Assembly: GCA_964016885.1 (NCBI GenBank)
Contig: OZ024747.1
Span: 53,444,001 to 53,508,000 of the forward strand
Origin: Eledone cirrhosa
Taxonomy: Eukaryota
Length of the DNA: 64,000 bases
Direction: 5' to 3'
The notes beneath the pieces are model-generated. The model was not told where the DNA came from. It was given only the letters and a program-made list of their open reading frames with translations, and did not search any database. A program made the translations under genes and the position numbers. Shown piece by piece: positions 5,055 to 44,759 of the stretch (position 1 is the stretch's first letter; the number at the start of each line of letters is the position of its first letter).

Positions 5055-5122
5055 TATTTTATCTGATGAGGACATATTGAGGAAACAGCACAGTACCTCT
5101 GAAATATATATATAATAAAATA
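5055..5122 (+). ncRNA. Minimal type-I hammerhead ribozyme, degenerate stem II
   Basis: TATTTTAT-CTGATGA-GGAcaTATTG...CAGTAccTCT-GAAA-TATATATA-TA-ATAAAATA. Stem I is 8 bp and stem II is interrupted. Confidence 0.6.
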
Positions 5123-5263: not shown

Positions 5264-5306
5264 ACGATGCTGACGATAGCTAATAAGCTTGAAACTAGTA
5301 CATCGT
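5264..5306 (+). ncRNA. Minimal type-I hammerhead ribozyme
   Basis: ACGATG-CTGACGA-tAGC(TAATAA)GCTt-GAAA-CTAG-TA-CATCGT. Stem I is 6 bp, stem II is 3 bp after a U-U pair, the palindrome is CTAG and the triplet is GUA. Confidence 0.85.
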
Positions 5307-6151: not shown

Positions 6152-6423
6152 TACATGCATTCAGTCTATGTCTATCTCTCCCATATACATATGAAGATTA
6201 AGAGGATATACTAGAAAGATATGGTCTGTACATGTAATGGGAGCAGTTGTTGTTGAGATCATTGACTACAAGGAACTTGTCACAGTTATATTTACACAAT
6301 CATACATTAGTAGGAACACGAATATACATACACACATGGAGGTGGATATAAGATGCTGCTGCTGATGGTATATATATCATCATCATCATCATTTAACGTC
6401 TATCTTCCATGCTAGCATGGGTT

Positions 6424-6483
<60 letters not shown>

Positions 6484-6484
<1 letters not shown>

Positions 6485-7364
6485 ATTAAGTTAAAAGTGT
6501 ACATCTACATATGTATACTGAAATACTAGTATGCATATAAATACACACATGTATACATATGTACATGTACTGAGTTTTTCACTGGACACTTTACTGTGAG
6601 TGTCCAGCTAGTCTGTATGTAACCAAACAGACAAACCGGGTTTTAGAGTCATACGGGTTTTCAAGGAAACACATTTCCTCTATTCTCCAGAGAGCCAGAC
6701 AGGAATATTGGACTAGTTTCGATGTTATTACATCTCATCAGCAATATATACCCATCTTCCGGCTTCTCTAGAGAATCGTAAAAGCACATATCGTTATATG
6801 CTTTTTCTATGAAAATTAGTAGTGGGCAGACTAATTTGCATAGAACGTGAGTCATTGTACGCACCGGTTCAGCGGAAACGATAAAAACAAATAACGAAAC
6901 GAAATTAAATTTCGTTTCGCTTCCAACTCACTTTTGTATGACTGACGCTTAAACAATTAAGTTAAAAGTGTACATCTACATATGTATACTGAAATACTAG
7001 TATGCATATAAATACACACATGTATTCATATGTACATGTACTGAGTTTTTCACTGGACACTTTACTGTGAGTGTCCAGCTAGTCTGTATGTAACCAAACA
7101 GACAAACCGGGTTTTAGAGTCATGACTCTAAAACCCGGTTTGTCTGTTTGGTTACATACAGACTAGCTGGACACTCACAGTAAAGTGTCCAGTGAAAAAC
7201 TCAGTACATGTACATATGTATACATGTGTGTATTTATATGCATACTAGTATTTCAGTATACATATGTAGATGTACACTTTTAACTTAATTGTTTAAGCGT
7301 CAGTCATACAAAAGTGAGTTGGAAACGAAACAAAATTTAATTTCGTTTCGTTATTTGTTTTTAT
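6484..7364 (-). mobile_element. Non-autonomous Penelope-like/retrozyme-type element: partial tandem repeat plus inverted truncated copy, in (TA)n
   Basis: Direct repeat 6484-6652 = 6955-7123 (period 471 bp). Spacerless palindrome 6881-7122/7123-7364 with about 3 mismatches. Hammerhead at 6705-6747 and (TA)n on both sides. Confidence 0.7.
6705..6747 (-). ncRNA. Minimal type-I hammerhead ribozyme, perfect core
   Basis: Minus strand reads ATATTG-CTGATGA-GATGT(AATA)ACATC-GAAA-CTAG-TC-CAATAT. This gives a 6-bp stem I, a 5-bp stem II, a palindromic stem III insert (CTAG) and a GUC cleavage triplet. Confidence 0.9.
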
Positions 7365-7366
7365 AT

Positions 7367-7443
<77 letters not shown>

Positions 7444-7477
7444 TATTAGACTATATATATATATTAGATTATATAAT

Positions 7478-9972: not shown

Positions 9973-10180
9973 ATATATATATATATATATATATATCGTG
10001 GTAAAAAGTCAGGAGGTTATACCCGTGGTAAGTAGAGCACTAAGTCCAGAGGATGAGTTTGGTATAGAGTTGGTCCTACAACAAATTAGCAAACCTTACT
10101 CAAGGATGCATGTTTCACCCAAAAGATTTTCTGAAAATCCGTTGGGTGAAATGTGCGTCTTCAAATATATATATATATAT

Positions 10181-10476
10181 ATACGATATTAATAAATGGA
10201 AACTATATTTATAAAACCATATTTATTTCATTATATATATTTCAAGGATACCAAGTTACATTATGGTATGCCTTCATCAGACAAAATACAATATGAAGGC
10301 ATACCATAATGTAACTTGGTATCCTTGAAATATATATAATGAAATAAATATGGTTTTATAAATATAGTTTCCATTTATTAATATCGTATATCTACTCCAA
10401 ATATTTGTCGAGTGCTTTATATCAGTTATAAAAATATTTGCTTGTTGTATCCCAACAATTTAAATAAAACTTTTGC
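10181..10476. mobile_element. Hammerhead-bearing fold-back element in (TA)n
   Basis: Inverted arms at about 10181-10277 and 10293-10391. The tail 10395-10470 is homologous to 37799-37875. Confidence 0.65.
10224..10288 (-). ncRNA. Minimal type-I hammerhead ribozyme
   Basis: Minus strand: TATTTTGT-CTGATGA-AGGcATACCA...TGGTATcCTT-GAAA-TATATA-TA-ATGAAATA. It is homologous to 37666-37730. Confidence 0.72.
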
Positions 10477-10492
10477 ATATATATATATATAT

Positions 10493-10843
10493 AAGTATTA
10501 AGTTGGTAAACAATATTCGATGATTATGTCAAAGAATGAGTTTTACAGTAGATTGGAAGCACTCAACGATTAAAAATAATTTTCAGGAGTTATTAATATT
10601 AAAATATAAGTATTAATAAAATAGATGTTCTTTTGATCAATTACATTTTATTATACATATTTCGGATATACAACAGTACGTCCTCATCAGACAAAATGTA
10701 ATGATACATGACATACCCTGAGATGTTAAATGGATTTAATCAAGGTAGTCAATGACTCTGATGAGGACGTACTGTTGTACATCCGAAATATGTATAATAA
10801 AATGTAATTGATCAAAAGAACATCTATTTTATTAATACTTATA

Positions 10844-10853
<10 letters not shown>
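10493..10853. mobile_element. Hammerhead-bearing fold-back element in (TA)n
   Basis: Inverted arms at about 10596-10691 and 10757-10853, flanked by TA tracts. Confidence 0.65.
10641..10701 (-). ncRNA. Minimal type-I hammerhead ribozyme
   Basis: Minus strand: TTACATTTTGT-CTGATGA-GGACGTAC(TGTT)GTATATCC-GAAA-TATGTA-TA-ATAAAATGTAA. Stem I is 11 bp and stem II is 8 bp with one mismatch. An inverted copy lacking the 5' strand of stem I starts at 10758. Confidence 0.8.
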
Positions 10854-26084: not shown

Positions 26085-26479
26085 AAATGAGGTCGTGTAG
26101 GTGTCATGACAAAAAAAAAAACACACAGTCCACGCTGTAATGTGGCCGTGTAGGTAACATGGTAAAAACCTCCCAGTCCACACTGTAAATGTGGTTGGTG
26201 TTAGGAAGGGCATCCAGCCGTAGAAAACCCGCCAGATGTGTAGGTGTCATGACAAAAAAACACACAGTCCATGCTGTAATGTGGTCGTGTAGGTAACACG
26301 GTAAAAATCTCCCAGTCCACACTGTAAACGTGGTTGGCGTTAGGAAGGGCATCCAGCCGTAGAAAACCCGCCAGACAGTCCTATATGAGCAGGACAACCA
26401 ATCTTGCCTCAAGTGGGAAAAGTCCCGTCCAAACCCATGCAAGCATGGAAGATGGACGTTAAACGATGATGATGATGAT

Positions 26480-26480
<1 letters not shown>
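26085..26480 (+). mobile_element. RTE-type 3' UTR fragment (related subfamily) with ~140-bp internal duplication
   Basis: Two copies of GTGTAGGTGTCATGACAAAA...GGAAGGGCATCCAGCCGTAGAAAACCCGCCAG, then CCCATGCAAGCATGGA..GGACGTTAAACGATGATG. Confidence 0.75.
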
Positions 26481-26518
<38 letters not shown>

Positions 26519-26614
26519 ATGTGTGTTTATGTGTGTATATATTTATATACACACACACATATACATATACATATATACATATATACACACACACATATAC
26601 ATATACATATATAC

Positions 26615-26648
<34 letters not shown>

Positions 26649-26813
26649 TTGACACCTCTATATGTATATATATATATATGTATATATATATATGCGTGTG
26701 TGTATATATATATGTATATATGTGTGTATATATATACACACACATATACATACACACACATATATATATATATGTGTGTATATATATATATAAAGCGTAT
26801 ATATATATATATA

Positions 26814-28937
26814 GAGGCGACGGATGAGGTTTGTGGCTGGAGTAAGACCTCAAGCAGGAGGAGAGTGACTTGGTGGTGGAACGATAAGGTAGATGAAGCA
26901 GTCAAGGCCAAGAGACAGGCATGGAAAGAATGGAAGAACGGGGGGTGCAGGGTACATTACATAGAGACCAAGAGGGAAGCTAGGCGACAAGTATACTTAG
27001 CTAGGAGGGAAGCAGAGGATAGAAAATTCAAGCATGTTTTACAACGTGAGGACCAGAAACAGGAGGTATTCAAGATTGCGAGGCAGTGTGTCAGAGATAG
27101 TTGTGATGTCATTGGAGAGAAGTGTATCCGGAATGATAAAGGTGAGCTTGCCCTCACAAGTGCTGAGAAGAAAGATGCATGGAAGAGTCATTATGATAGA
27201 TTACTAAATGAGGAGAATGCATGGGAAGAAGAGACCCTACCCCACGTAGACCCTATAGAGGGACCAGCAGTACAAGTCAGCGGCAGCGTAGTAAGTAAGG
27301 CAATCAGAGATATGAAGATAGGGAAGGCAACCGGTCCATCGGGTATAGCTGCCCAGATGCTGAAGGCATCTGGGTCTGTAGGTCACACTATAACCACACG
27401 TATCGTTAACCAGGTAATACTAGAGGGGGCCATACCAAAAGATTGGTGCAGTAGCATCATTGTCAACTGCTACAAAGGTAAAGGCGATGCACTAGATAGA
27501 GGAAACTATAGAGGTATAAAGTTGATGGACCAGGTCATGAAAGTAACAGAAAGAGTTATAGCACAGCTGATTAGGGACCGGGTGAATATAGACGAGATGC
27601 AATTTGGGTTTGTACCAGGGAAAGGCACCACTGATGCGCTCTTCCTTGTAAGGCAATTACAGGAAAAGTACCTAGCTAAAAGTAAGCCACTCTACTTGGC
27701 ATTTGTCGACCTTGAGAAAGCCTTTGACAGAGTTCCACGTGCAGTAATCTGGTGGGCTCTTAGAAAACTAGGAGTAGATGAATGGCTTGTGAAAGCGGTA
27801 CAAGCCATGTATAGGGGAGCAGTCAGCAAAGTTAGGATTGGCAATGAGTATAGCGAGGAATTTAGCGTACAGGTTGGGGTCCACCAGGGCTCTGTTCTTA
27901 GCCCTCTCCTGTTCATCATAGTCCTGCAGGCAATAACGGAGGAGTTTAAGACCGGATGCCCATGGGAACTCCTGTATGCTGATGACCTCGCACTCATAGC
28001 TGAATCTATGGTAGAACTAGAGAATAAATTCCAAACCTGGAAGCAGGGACTAGAGAGAAAGGGCCTCAAAGTCAACATGACAAAGACTAAGGTCCTTATA
28101 AGTAGACGAGAAAACAGAACCCAGATCCCCTCAGGGAAATGGCCTTGCTCAGTATGTAGGAAAGGTGTAGGTAGGAACTCCATTCTTTGCCCCAAATGCA
28201 AACAATGGGTACACAAGAGATGTAGCGGGATCTCAGGAAGCTTAATTAAGAATGTAGGATTCACATGCAGCAGCTGTGCTGAAACAGCAAGCAAACAGCC
28301 ACAGGAAACAAGTACCACCAATCTCTGGGAGGGCCCTGTAGAAACAGTAGACAGCTTCTGCTACCTAGGTGACCGAATTAGCAACGGAGGTGGGTGCTCA
28401 GAAAGTACAATAACTAGGGTAAGAACGGGATGGAAGAAGTTTAGGGAACTACTACCACTGCTAGCTGCAAAAGGCTTCTCCCTCAGAATGAAAGGCAGAC
28501 TGTATGATGCGTGTATCCGAACAGCGATGTTGCATGGTAGTGAGACCTGGGCGCTGAAGGTGGAAGACTTACGTAGATTAGAGAGAAACGAAGCCTGCAT
28601 GCTCCGATGGATGTGTAACAGTAATATACGTGAACGACAAAGCATAAAGGAATTGAGAGAGAGACTGAGCATAAGAGGAATCAAATGCTGCGTGCAGGAG
28701 AGGCGGTTACGCTGGTATGGACATGTGATGCGTATGAAGGATGACAGCTGCATAAAAAGGTGCAGAGCACTAGAAGTTGATGGAAACCGCGGAGTGGGGA
28801 GACCCAAGATGACTTGGGATGAGGTGATAAAAGCCGACCTTACCCAACTACACCTCTCAAAGTCAATGACACACGACCGTGACTTCTGGCGTCACGCAGT
28901 AATACAGGGTACCCGACCTCCCATGGGTACATGCTGA
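26814..28937 (+). CDS. Reverse transcriptase ORF of an RTE-clade LINE (5'-truncated, no APE endonuclease), with internal PHD-like Cys/His finger
   Basis: About 707 uninterrupted codons. Motifs include [71 protein letters not shown] and GRPK..W. The finger reads CSVC..CPKC..WVHKRC..CSSC. The ORF-track N-terminus (26466-26813) is microsatellite. Confidence 0.95.
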
Positions 28938-37629: not shown

Positions 37630-37877
37630 ATTAACAAATGGAAACTATATTTATAAAACCATATTTATTTCATTATACATATTTCAAGGACACCAAAGCA
37701 AATTATGGTGCGCTTTCATCAGAGAAAATATAATATAGATCAGTTTTATAAACAAATATTGACATACCCTTAAAGAATGCGACCATGTCGGTTGGAAGCT
37801 CCAAACATTTGTTGAGTGCTTTATATCAGTTATAAAAATATTTGCTTATTGTATCCCAACAAATTAAATATAACTTC

Positions 37878-38852: not shown

Positions 38853-40652
38853 ATATATTTAATATATAGTATCTGTGATAGTACCCCCTTTTACTTTTTA
38901 GAGTGGACTAGGTAAATTTCATTATGGTCCCAGCACTTGAGAGGTTGTCATGTACCAGGCAATGTGGAAGGGTTCTCTCAAATGCAATACATTCTCTAGT
39001 AACTTTTGATAGCCAAACACTATAGTTTCTGTTGTTGCACTATATTGATTTTTCCTGTCTCAGTTCTTGTACTAGTGGATGGGCTTTTGCATCATCGCAT
39101 ATTGACAGTCAGCGTAGTCCTGTGTTATCACCTTCATGAAGTTCAGTTTCATATTCAATTGATGGTGTACAACCTTTATAGACCCAAATGATGGTATTCA
39201 GAGAAACTATACTGGGGCAGATGGGCACTTGTTCAGAAGAATTTATTTAATATCTAATTTTTTTTACTCAGCCGTCCTGTGTCTCATTTACTATCTCTGC
39301 TGCCTTTACATTAACAAATATTTGTCTTGTAATTTATACCATATTTTAAAGATGAATTTGTTTTTGTATATGCAACAAAAATTTATTGATTTATAATGTG
39401 GTAATTTTTTAGTGCCAAAAGGACATGTTCTGGAACCATTTGTGTAATGAGTGGAACTGTCTATTATTTCCCAGTTTATATTCAAATTTTGTTCTCTTAG
39501 TTTCCAAATGTGCTTTGAAAGAAATGCTATGCTCCATATGTTTATATTGTGGATGGATTGTATATGATGTAAGTATCTAGCTTTGAATGTCAGGAGACAT
39601 AAAAACTATATACATTAAAAGACAAGGGAAGGAATATCTGTTAATTGATACTGGCATCAAATAATTGTCATGTGATAACAATTCTGCTGTTGTTGTTGCT
39701 GCTTTGTGGTTTCCCCTTCCTTATTATAAGATGCTGTTATGGTAGTAAATGTTGTTTTTATTGTTAATGTCATTGCTGCTACTGCTTTTTATGATGGCGA
39801 TGAAGATGGAACTGATGCTGATGATGATGGTGATGGTGATGAAGGTGGTACTGTTGCTGCTGATGATGGTGATGGAGATGGTACTGTTGCTGCTGATGAT
39901 GATGGTGATGGTGATGAAGATGGTACTGTTGCTGCTGATGTTGGTGATGGTGATGAAGGTGGTACTGTTGCTGCTGCTGCTGATGATGATGGTGGTGATG
40001 GAGATGGTGATGAAGGTGGTACTGTTGCTGATGATGATGATGATGATGATGATGGTGATGGAGATGGTGATGAAGGTGGTACTGTTGCTGCTGATGTTTG
40101 AATCTGTTTCTCTGTCATACCACTCCAAACTACTTCCCCACCATCTCCTCCTTTCACTTAACAACAGCAGCATGGACCCTGTCACTATCGCCACCACCAC
40201 CATCATTACCATTCCAGTCACCACCACTACTATAACTACTATCACCTCCACTCCAGTCACGACTACCACTTCTACTACCACCCAGTCACTATCATGACCA
40301 TCACTACCTCTCTAGTTACCACCACCACCACCATCATTACCATTCCAGTCACCACCACTACCATCACTTTCACTACTATAACTACTATCACCTCCACTCC
40401 AGTCACGACTACCACTTCTACTACCACCCAGTCACTATCATGACCATCACTACCTCTCTAGTTACCACCACCACCACCATCACTACCTCTCTAGTTACCA
40501 CCACCACCACCATTATCAATACTATTACCACTAGCACACCACTTATCATCAACATGATCATCACCATTAACACCACAGCAACAACAATGAACTAATAAAA
40601 GGCCTCTATATTGTTACTTGACCTGCTAGAAGGAACTCCTTATTATCTTCTA

Positions 40653-43400: not shown

Positions 43401-44759
43401 TAAAAAAAACAATTGTGACAATGTAAATGAGAATGACAGAAAATGTAGGCCAGATTTAATTCAGACCTTAGGCAAGATTTGTTTTAATATTTCTGCTTGA
43501 CCAGTTCATGGTTTATTCATATAGAACTTATAATTACACACCATTCACTCACCAACCAATCGTAATGAAGGCTTACAATTTAAAAATATAACTGAACTTC
43601 TAATGGTAATTTTAATAATAAATTATAATGATCCACTATATAAAGAAATATTCATGATATCTCCCCCCCTCCACTGCCCACTGCCCACATTACATGATAA
43701 ACCAGAGAATGGTGAACCTCTGAGTTAGAAAGCTTTATAGTAACTTTCAGCTAATATATATTTATGTAAGCTTATATGGGACCAGCTGAGCTAGTTTCAA
43801 ACCTGTATTGGGATTTAATCAGTGACATATCATACATGCCTGTAAATTATTTAGCTAACTGCACAGTTTCTAAAGTTTGTCTCAAGCCAGGAGATTCGTC
43901 AGGCTGGTGCTTATTCAAGTTTTGTGGTGTGAAATGGCTGAGAGTACAAGACCGCCCCCTTTCATCGCAGGGTTGAACCCCCCCCCCCCCAGCTATTGCT
44001 GGTACTCATTTTCAGTTGCATGTATTGGAGCAACGTGAAATGAAGTGTTTGGCTTAAGAACACAGTGTACAACCCAGCCCAGGAATTGAACCCACAATAT
44101 TATGACCATAAGTCCAAAATCCTTACAACTAGGTGCAGTTTCTGAATGACCAAAATATTTCTTTCCTAGATCATGTCCATTGTGGACATGCAATAGCAAA
44201 ATTTAAGGTTTCAAGGCAGCAGTTAGAACTGTCTTTAAAAACAGTGATAAAAACTAGCTTATACTATTATTAATTATCGACTTAAAAAATGTGTGCAAGG
44301 CAGCGAGTTGGCAGAGTCATTAGAATGTCAGATAGAATGTTTTGTGGTAATCATTTTTACTCTCTGTAATCTCTGAGTTCAAATCCTGCCAAGGTCAACT
44401 TTGCCTTTCATCCTTTTAAGGTCAATAAAAAAGTACCAGTCTAGTATTGAGGTCGATATTTCCTCTATATCTCTTTTTCACTTCTCTCTCACTTTCTATC
44501 ATTCTCTGGAAGAAATCTCATGTAATCACTGAACAACATGCCTTGAAGAATTTGAAAGATGTTTACATCACCTAAGTTTCCCAAATGGTCCCTCATCTAA
44601 GTACTAAATAGGTTTGACATTGTTTAACCTCTGTGATTGGACAAGCACTTAGGCTTTCAACATGATAGGGTCATAAACAACAATAAAAACTATTAATACA
44701 TCAACATAGCAGTCATTGTGTTGTCTAAAAAGGGAGGTAATTAAAATATAAGTAACTCA

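Follow-up and report, generated by a model that had tools for sequence, protein, structure and literature searches.

What kind of element is the non-coding, hammerhead-bearing locus at 6484–7364, and which machinery inserted it? The preliminary description regarded it as a complete-looking retrozyme/Penelope-type unit, and within the window (the whole stretch of 64,000 nt analyzed) self-comparison recovered the minus-strand order given there, inverted(XY), X, Y, Z, X, with a period of 471. The element occupies 6484–7364, between two all-A/T tracts of 56 and 76 nt, and has the following parts:

6428–6483, unstranded: left (TA)n tract, 56 nt, all A/T; the likely insertion target
6484–6652, minus strand: segment X, last partial unit, 169 nt, period 471; stops 74 nt before the usual 3′ end of the family
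6653–7123, minus strand: one full 471-nt period, 36% GC, non-coding, strong self-pairing; joint 7123→6653 present in 4/4 public sequencing runs compared
6653–6880, minus strand: segment Z, carrying the hammerhead; likely the true 5′ part, judging by the recurrent 3′ end at 6881
6698–6756, minus strand: predicted extended type I hammerhead, with a 6-bp helix I that an internal loop separates from a distal helix, also of 6 bp (6756–6751/6698–6703)
6834–6841, minus strand: octamer ATGCAAAT, a candidate snRNA-type promoter element
6881–6954, minus strand: segment Y, with a 13-bp hairpin (6921–6893) and a T-rich tail; 6881 is where the 3′ end recurs in the family
6955–7122, minus strand: segment X, 5′-truncated upstream copy, a pseudo-LTR-like partial tandem
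7123–7364, plus strand: inverted 5′-truncated X+Y copy, head to head with zero spacer, stopping at the family's usual 3′ end
7365–7440, unstranded: right (TA)n tract, 76 nt, all A/T

The direct repeat 6484–6652/6955–7123 extends over 169 nt at a period of 471 with one mismatch (6555/7026), and the inverted arms 6881–7122/7123–7364 over 242 nt with no spacer and three mismatches (6913, 6920, 7026). On the minus strand the head-to-tail part thus amounts to 639 nt, or 1.36 units, preceded by the 242-nt inverted arm. The claim that a partial tandem with an inverted 5′-truncated copy is the Penelope insertion signature agrees with the layouts reported in PMC8557442, where PLE insertions are described as partial tandems with an adjacent inverted 5′-truncated copy, often in (TA)n. 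"Complete-looking", in contrast, was overstated: there is a single hammerhead, and another 74 nt would be needed for the leftmost unit to reach the end usual in the family. No further copy of the 471-nt unit was found by blastn in the 64-kb window, the other matches being low-complexity stretches of at most 86 nt and one of 136 nt at 71%.

Because both element ends sit in (TA)n, a target-site duplication is not definable. The motif TTAGACTATATA occurs in the whole window only at 6422, close to the left end of the element, and at 7446 and 7517, close to its right end, and these flanking copies may represent a blurred target-site duplication. An inverted pair further out (5821–6125/7777–8097) was considered as part of the element and rejected: its members are two of 20 matches in the window to a common SINE-like repeat, 88.5% alike overall.

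The earlier statement that no protein is encoded holds, with a longest ATG open reading frame of 64 aa in the closed 471-nt unit and no Pfam match in the two frames of the element that were searched. As RNA, the unit is predicted to fold at −159.1 kcal/mol (z −10.4; 0/100 shuffles as good), more strongly on the minus than on the plus strand (−159.1 vs. −136.5), and all three hairpin pairs named previously, including GTCTGT/ACAGAC, are present. Nothing within 6484–7364 reaches an Rfam gathering threshold; miRNA matches from Rfam at the element come from the palindrome and were discarded. The octamer ATGCAAAT deserves mention as a lead only: one is present in 109/5000 shuffles of the unit, and its first seven bases also occur in loose ends of three runs. 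Newt satellite 2 has an snRNA-type promoter (cited second-hand in PMC2220036), and retrozymes seem to be without promoters according to PMC7761336; the octamer at 6841–6834 recalls the newt satellite 2 promoter and is possibly a promoter itself. A sigma-70 promoter scan was irrelevant and at chance level (4 vs. 4.3).

A Helitron-like or MITE-like DNA element, non-autonomous and inserting at TA, could also have acquired a hammerhead; in its favor are the long inverted repeats, the TA-rich flanks, and the hairpin that lies immediately inward of the 3′ end. The inverted repeats are, however, not terminal, given that 6484 pairs with 7290 and not with 7364. Helitrons end in CTRR at their 3′ end, whereas this element's 3′ end on the hammerhead strand reads TTTTAT. 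A DNA element would moreover leave both the hammerhead and the exact head-to-tail period unexplained, and we consider this origin very unlikely.

The hammerhead core lies on the minus strand, with CUGAUGA at 6741–6735, GAAA at 6720–6717, and GUC at 6713–6711, within a motif spanning 6747–6705 and with the predicted cleavage site between 6711 and 6710. Helix II has 4–5 bp, a G-C first pair and no bulged base, and helix III is one A-U pair closing the 4-nt palindromic loop CUAG. The motif arose in 0/5000 dinucleotide shuffles of the unit, and the Rfam model Hammerhead_HH9 matches 6688–6760 with 32.9 bits (E 3.4e-6), under its gathering score of 52. It is the only hammerhead within 6484–7364, so that of the "one perfect hammerhead" claimed initially the single motif with an intact core stands, whereas "perfect" does not suit a helix III of just one pair and a palindromic tetraloop. 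With such a helix III, the hammerhead likely needs a partner copy to cleave well, by analogy with characterized ribozymes. The minimum-energy fold argues against activity, mispairing helix I, with the canonical pairs only 0.22–0.33 probable; in favor of a dimer, the computed loop–loop duplex of two helices III has 6 bp at −4.8 kcal/mol. The axolotl HHR_Amex1, with a comparable helix III, cuts to 6% in 1 h alone and far better as a dimer (PMC7229834), and of nine Xenopus dimers only one cleaved in vitro (bioRxiv 10.64898/2026.07.22.740005).

Two forms of animal hammerhead are set apart in PMC4209133: the canonical metazoan form, with a 6-bp helix I, a 4-bp helix II, and a helix III of 1–2 bp with a palindromic loop, which is active as a dimer, and the PLE minimal form. 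The minimal hammerheads of PLE pseudo-LTRs (pLTRs) have a helix II of 7–8 bp, a short helix I, and a bulged base before helix II, compared with 4–5 bp, 6 bp, and no bulge here. In its predicted geometry the motif fits the canonical metazoan type I hammerhead and not the PLE minimal form.

To place the unit in a family we turned to public sequencing runs. Of the 23 runs listed, 20 contain part of the stretch, three of these half or more; none is recorded as RNA. One 471-nt period was compared with four of the 23 (X1, X4, X5, and X21, from four studies; X1 may be the window's own sample), and 13 runs with shares below 0.2 were excluded. In X1, 952 contigs match the unit (352, 302, 224, and 74 at 99% or more, 95–99%, 90–95%, and below 90% likeness, respectively), although neither this number nor the summed contig depth is a measure of genomic copy number. 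Matches in the other runs comprise 36 contigs in X4, one contig in X5, and 3395 of 12,467,656 reads in X21. The head-to-tail joint 7123→6653 is found in 4/4 runs (four contigs in X1, two in X4, one in X5, and 49 reads with three starts in X21). That the unit is multi-copy and also joined head to tail elsewhere, as had been proposed, is thereby borne out.

The single X5 contig, of 499 nt, runs from 6883 to 7123 and then from 6653 to 6912, that is, one period plus a 30-nt overlap; the record classes this closed unit as neither RNA nor DNA. The break, at 6883, falls on the k-mer that sorts first in alphabetical order around the cycle and also lies 2 nt from the 6881 terminus. Assemblers may by convention open a cyclic contig at just such a k-mer. 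The break fits this convention, and with the kind of the contig not on record we rejected it as proof of a circular RNA.

Among the loose ends listed, (AT)n directly precedes 6881 in at least six X1 contigs and at least one X4 contig. The inverted arm of the window ends at this point too, which makes 6881 the usual 3′ terminus of the family, read on the hammerhead strand. The two ends of the element lie 74 nt apart (6881 vs. 6955 register), and only 6881 recurs among the loose ends listed. From this recurrent end it follows that the natural register of the unit is likely Z-X-Y, with the leftmost unit ending 74 nt early.

The same data bear on whether the unit amplifies in its own right. It could instead be the internally repeated pseudo-LTR of a coding PLE, with the locus a heavily 5′-truncated insertion and no independent amplification. 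Truncated copies of autonomous PLEs give exactly such a layout (PMC8557442), tandem hammerheads occur in axolotl PLEs (PMC7229834), and two other hammerhead loci in the window (10176–10394 and 10596–10852) also have inverted layouts. Against this, all four runs compared contain the 471-nt unit closed head to tail, X5 as a whole period; contigs that continue into unlike sequence make up a share of 0 after rounding in X1, the deepest run (0.09 in X4); and the hammerhead lacks the long helix II and bulged base of the PLE minimal form. Some room for this alternative is left by short contigs and by 111 loose ends beyond those listed: contigs matched in the X1 and X4 lists measure 60–160 nt, and among the loose ends listed X4 has one of 133 nt at 7040, so a rare coding partner of the family is possible. 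On balance we regard a truncated coding PLE as an unlikely source of the locus.

Head-to-tail closure would be equally expected of a hammerhead-bearing satellite that spreads at the DNA level, by unequal exchange or re-insertion of circular DNA, with a repair-made palindrome and no RNA step. Such a satellite route after PLE landing has been proposed (bioRxiv 10.64898/2026.07.22.740005), and the unrecorded kind of the X5 contig is compatible with it. A satellite does not account for the fixed (AT)n-joined end, seen in at least seven contigs from two runs and identical to the end of the inverted arm, nor for a conserved ribozyme core with variants that spare predicted pairs, and we judge it slightly less probable than the truncated PLE.

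Variation was read from 40 of 78 variant sites, a selected half related by descent; among these the conserved hammerhead core is untouched except at C17. Position 17 is U in 14% of the X1 depth and in 334/523 plus-strand X21 reads; hammerheads with U at this position cut less well. Most copies have A-U where the distal helix here has a G-U pair. Of the 40 sites, 22 are unpaired on the predicted fold, ten keep their pair, one does so only when its partner changes as well, and seven break it. Single-site changes break eight pairs against 16 expected (P about 0.006), a rough comparison given selected, kin-related sites and a fold taken from one copy.

Three events in 653 nt, or 0.46% (95% range 0.09–1.3%), separate the three parts of the locus, a divergence by which the insertion is to be read as young. 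The octopus clock of PMC13282606, valid only for an octopus host, would put its age at about 1.3 million years (0.3–3.7).

The zero spacer between the arms invites the objection that the inverted arm arose as a fold-back artefact during sequencing or assembly of a real 1.36-unit copy, and the window's fold-back junction 7122/7123 is absent among the joints listed in the runs. The arms, however, differ at three sites, and the inverted arm stops at the family's own terminus, followed by (TA)n and then by different DNA, with no mirror of the left side beyond. An artefact is thus the least probable of the explanations we weighed.

Further observations from the run comparison concern single libraries. 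An opposite-strand joint 6889/7123 in X21 (seven reads, four starts) is possibly another inverted insertion of the family or a library chimera. The X21 read ends at 6817, 6906, 6958, 6814, 6833, and 6908 were rejected as element ends: they fall on AATT sites (6814, 6833, 6903, 6908, 6955), and we therefore took them, together with the share of 0.9 running on into unlike sequence, as effects of a RAD library. A 20-nt exact pattern had 0 matches in viral contigs, and its one match to a metagenome contig showed no further likeness and was dismissed as chance.

Six further hammerhead-like cores were detected in the window, two of them with inverted layouts, and none in reversed or complemented control sequences; hammerhead insertions are accordingly common in the host genome. 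The cores at 10280 and 10690 (minus strand; 10176–10394 and 10596–10852) show an inverted-plus-direct layout, with arms 93% and 85% alike and a long helix II. Neither locus has blastn likeness to the 471-nt unit, and both are likely older PLE-type insertions. The remaining cores are at 5063 and 5270 on the plus strand and at 37722 and 63614 on the minus strand; the one at 37722 is 74% alike to the 10280 locus, and the one at 5270 also has a CTAG loop.

An autonomous partner was not found in the 64-kb window. The sole reverse transcriptase (RT) there is a long open LINE frame with an inserted PHD finger at 26463–28937 on the plus strand (RVT_1 E 6.6e-32, PHD E 3e-6), whose relatives, at 47–60% identity, often carry an APE endonuclease domain; we rejected it as PLE partner, as it belongs to an APE-type LINE and not to a PLE. 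A search of 150 of the 215 complex frames of the window gave no match to a GIY-YIG domain, and an RT plus GIY-YIG open reading frame is absent from the element. The short frame 39309–39605 (minus strand), which we take to resemble the endonuclease end of Penelope, has no Pfam or Atlas match. Also in the window, 44560–44678 (minus strand) is 5S rRNA-like, above the Rfam gathering threshold at 48.6 bits, and probably a pseudogene or the 5S-derived head of a SINE.

With layout, motif, many copies, head-to-tail closure, and the recurrent (AT)n-joined end directly observed, we read the locus as a young monomer-class copy of an abundant non-LTR retrozyme-type family, inserted by PLE machinery, and give this reading a probability of about 0.72. 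The initial designation as a retrozyme/Penelope-type unit survives in that the unit is non-coding, multi-copy, and laid out in PLE fashion, but not in its "complete", there being one hammerhead and no double cleavage at the locus. By analogy with characterized PLEs, the enzyme is likely a Penelope-like RT/GIY-YIG endonuclease and the target the (TA)n tract.

In the mechanism we propose, tandem source copies elsewhere would be transcribed on the hammerhead strand, and two hammerheads would pair via their palindromic helix III loops and then cut. A host ligase could close the released unit into a circle, by analogy with what has been demonstrated in vitro for both axolotl and mussel (PMC7229834). 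The PLE enzyme would nick both strands of the AT-rich target and prime cDNA at two internal RNA sites 74 nt apart, of which the usual site, in the 6881 register, would give the right arm and the other, in the 6955 register, the left end, and a fold-back at 7122/7123 would join the two cDNA products into the palindrome. In vitro, the protein of an anole PLE cleaves and extends both strands of AT-rich DNA, and its reverse transcription begins at two sites inside the RNA (PMC11167929), a behavior that would fit the two outward-facing 3′ ends seen here. Less in keeping with this reading, the 74-nt end difference exceeds the optional 3′ tail of 30–40 nt that two RT start sites give in PLEs.

In the left product of 639 nt, 412 nt precede and 227 nt follow a cleavage site that is intact, and we infer from this that a circle or an uncut multimer served as its template and not a cut linear monomer. 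Published models differ on this point: the anole work favors an uncut RNA as the main template, with insertion not needing hammerhead cleavage (PMC11167929), and the retrozyme model favors a circular template (PMC7229834). A base-exact meeting of the two 5′ ends by independent stops would occur about once in 471 cases, so the junction more likely reflects a fold-back or an RNA whose end at 7122 is defined. Double cleavage takes two hammerheads, and the locus, having one, cannot set a unit free in this way; it is likely a daughter copy and a dead end. The fullest version of this scenario has a Penelope RT travel around a ligated retrozyme circle and leave the locus as its direct footprint, with both strands of a (TA)n cut primed at two fixed internal sites, the re-ligated hammerhead junction copied through, and closure by fold-back; the family would be a circular RNA that promotes itself by the snRNA-type octamer, in a lineage, probably cephalopod, for which our literature search found no retrozyme. 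This version is tentative, and we hold it to be doubtful.

The retrozyme class itself and hammerhead repeats in molluscs are already known. Non-LTR retrozymes have been described in coral, mussel, and axolotl, and their circular RNA has been demonstrated (PMC7229834). The present unit resembles those of metazoans (axolotl Rtz_331 with HHR_Amex1, newt satellite 2) in being non-coding, below 50% GC, head to tail, and strongly self-paired, and shares with them the type I hammerhead in which a single pair closed by a palindromic tetraloop forms helix III. It differs in the single hammerhead at this locus and in its inverted 5′-truncated arm. At 471 nt it is longer than the 170–400 nt given in PMC7229834 and inside the 51–972 bp of bioRxiv 10.64898/2026.07.22.740005. 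The latter regards non-LTR retrozymes as non-autonomous PLE derivatives, and their monomer copies as likely inactive offspring; its "monomer" class fits the locus, which has one hammerhead unit where its "active" class has two consecutive units with complete hammerheads. We therefore file the locus as a monomer-class copy of a retrozyme-type family and as neither an active retrozyme nor an autonomous PLE.

With the EN+ PLEs (Neptune, Poseidon, Naiad; PMC8557442, PMC11167929) the element shares the partial tandem, the inverted 5′-truncated copy, the (TA)n target, and possibly the alternative 3′ ends. It is unlike them in having no RT or GIY-YIG open reading frame, a canonical instead of a minimal hammerhead, and a 74-nt instead of a 30–40-nt end difference; Naiads are reported to be without canonical hammerheads (PMC8557442). 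Non-autonomous Chlamys PLEs such as MRC1 are likewise non-coding, pLTR-forming, and often head to tail, but are green-algal and belong to a clade described as lacking canonical hammerheads (PMC8557442).

A literature search found no octopus hammerhead in the titles or abstracts of the papers listed, no paper on a type I hammerhead in cephalopods, and neither this family nor a retrozyme with an inverted PLE-type junction. The main text of the O. vulgaris repeat paper (PMC13282606), as available, contains neither "ribozyme" nor "hammerhead" and records 31 recently active Penelope-like families. The family is thus likely new within a known class, and may already be recorded in repeat databases or supplements.

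So far, co-occurrence and pLTR likeness are the grounds on which an enzyme has been proposed for the mobilization of animal retrozymes. The evidence in bioRxiv 10.64898/2026.07.22.740005 is of this kind (co-occurrence and pLTR phylogeny, mostly from vertebrates), and insertion junctions are not described in its available text. A non-coding unit with a canonical hammerhead and a full Penelope scar constitutes structural evidence for PLE mobilization. An abundant family with a fixed 3′ end permits a genome-wide test of RT start sites and template circularity and, should the circular-template footprint prove true, its many junctions could test the PLE-mobilization model across the genome.
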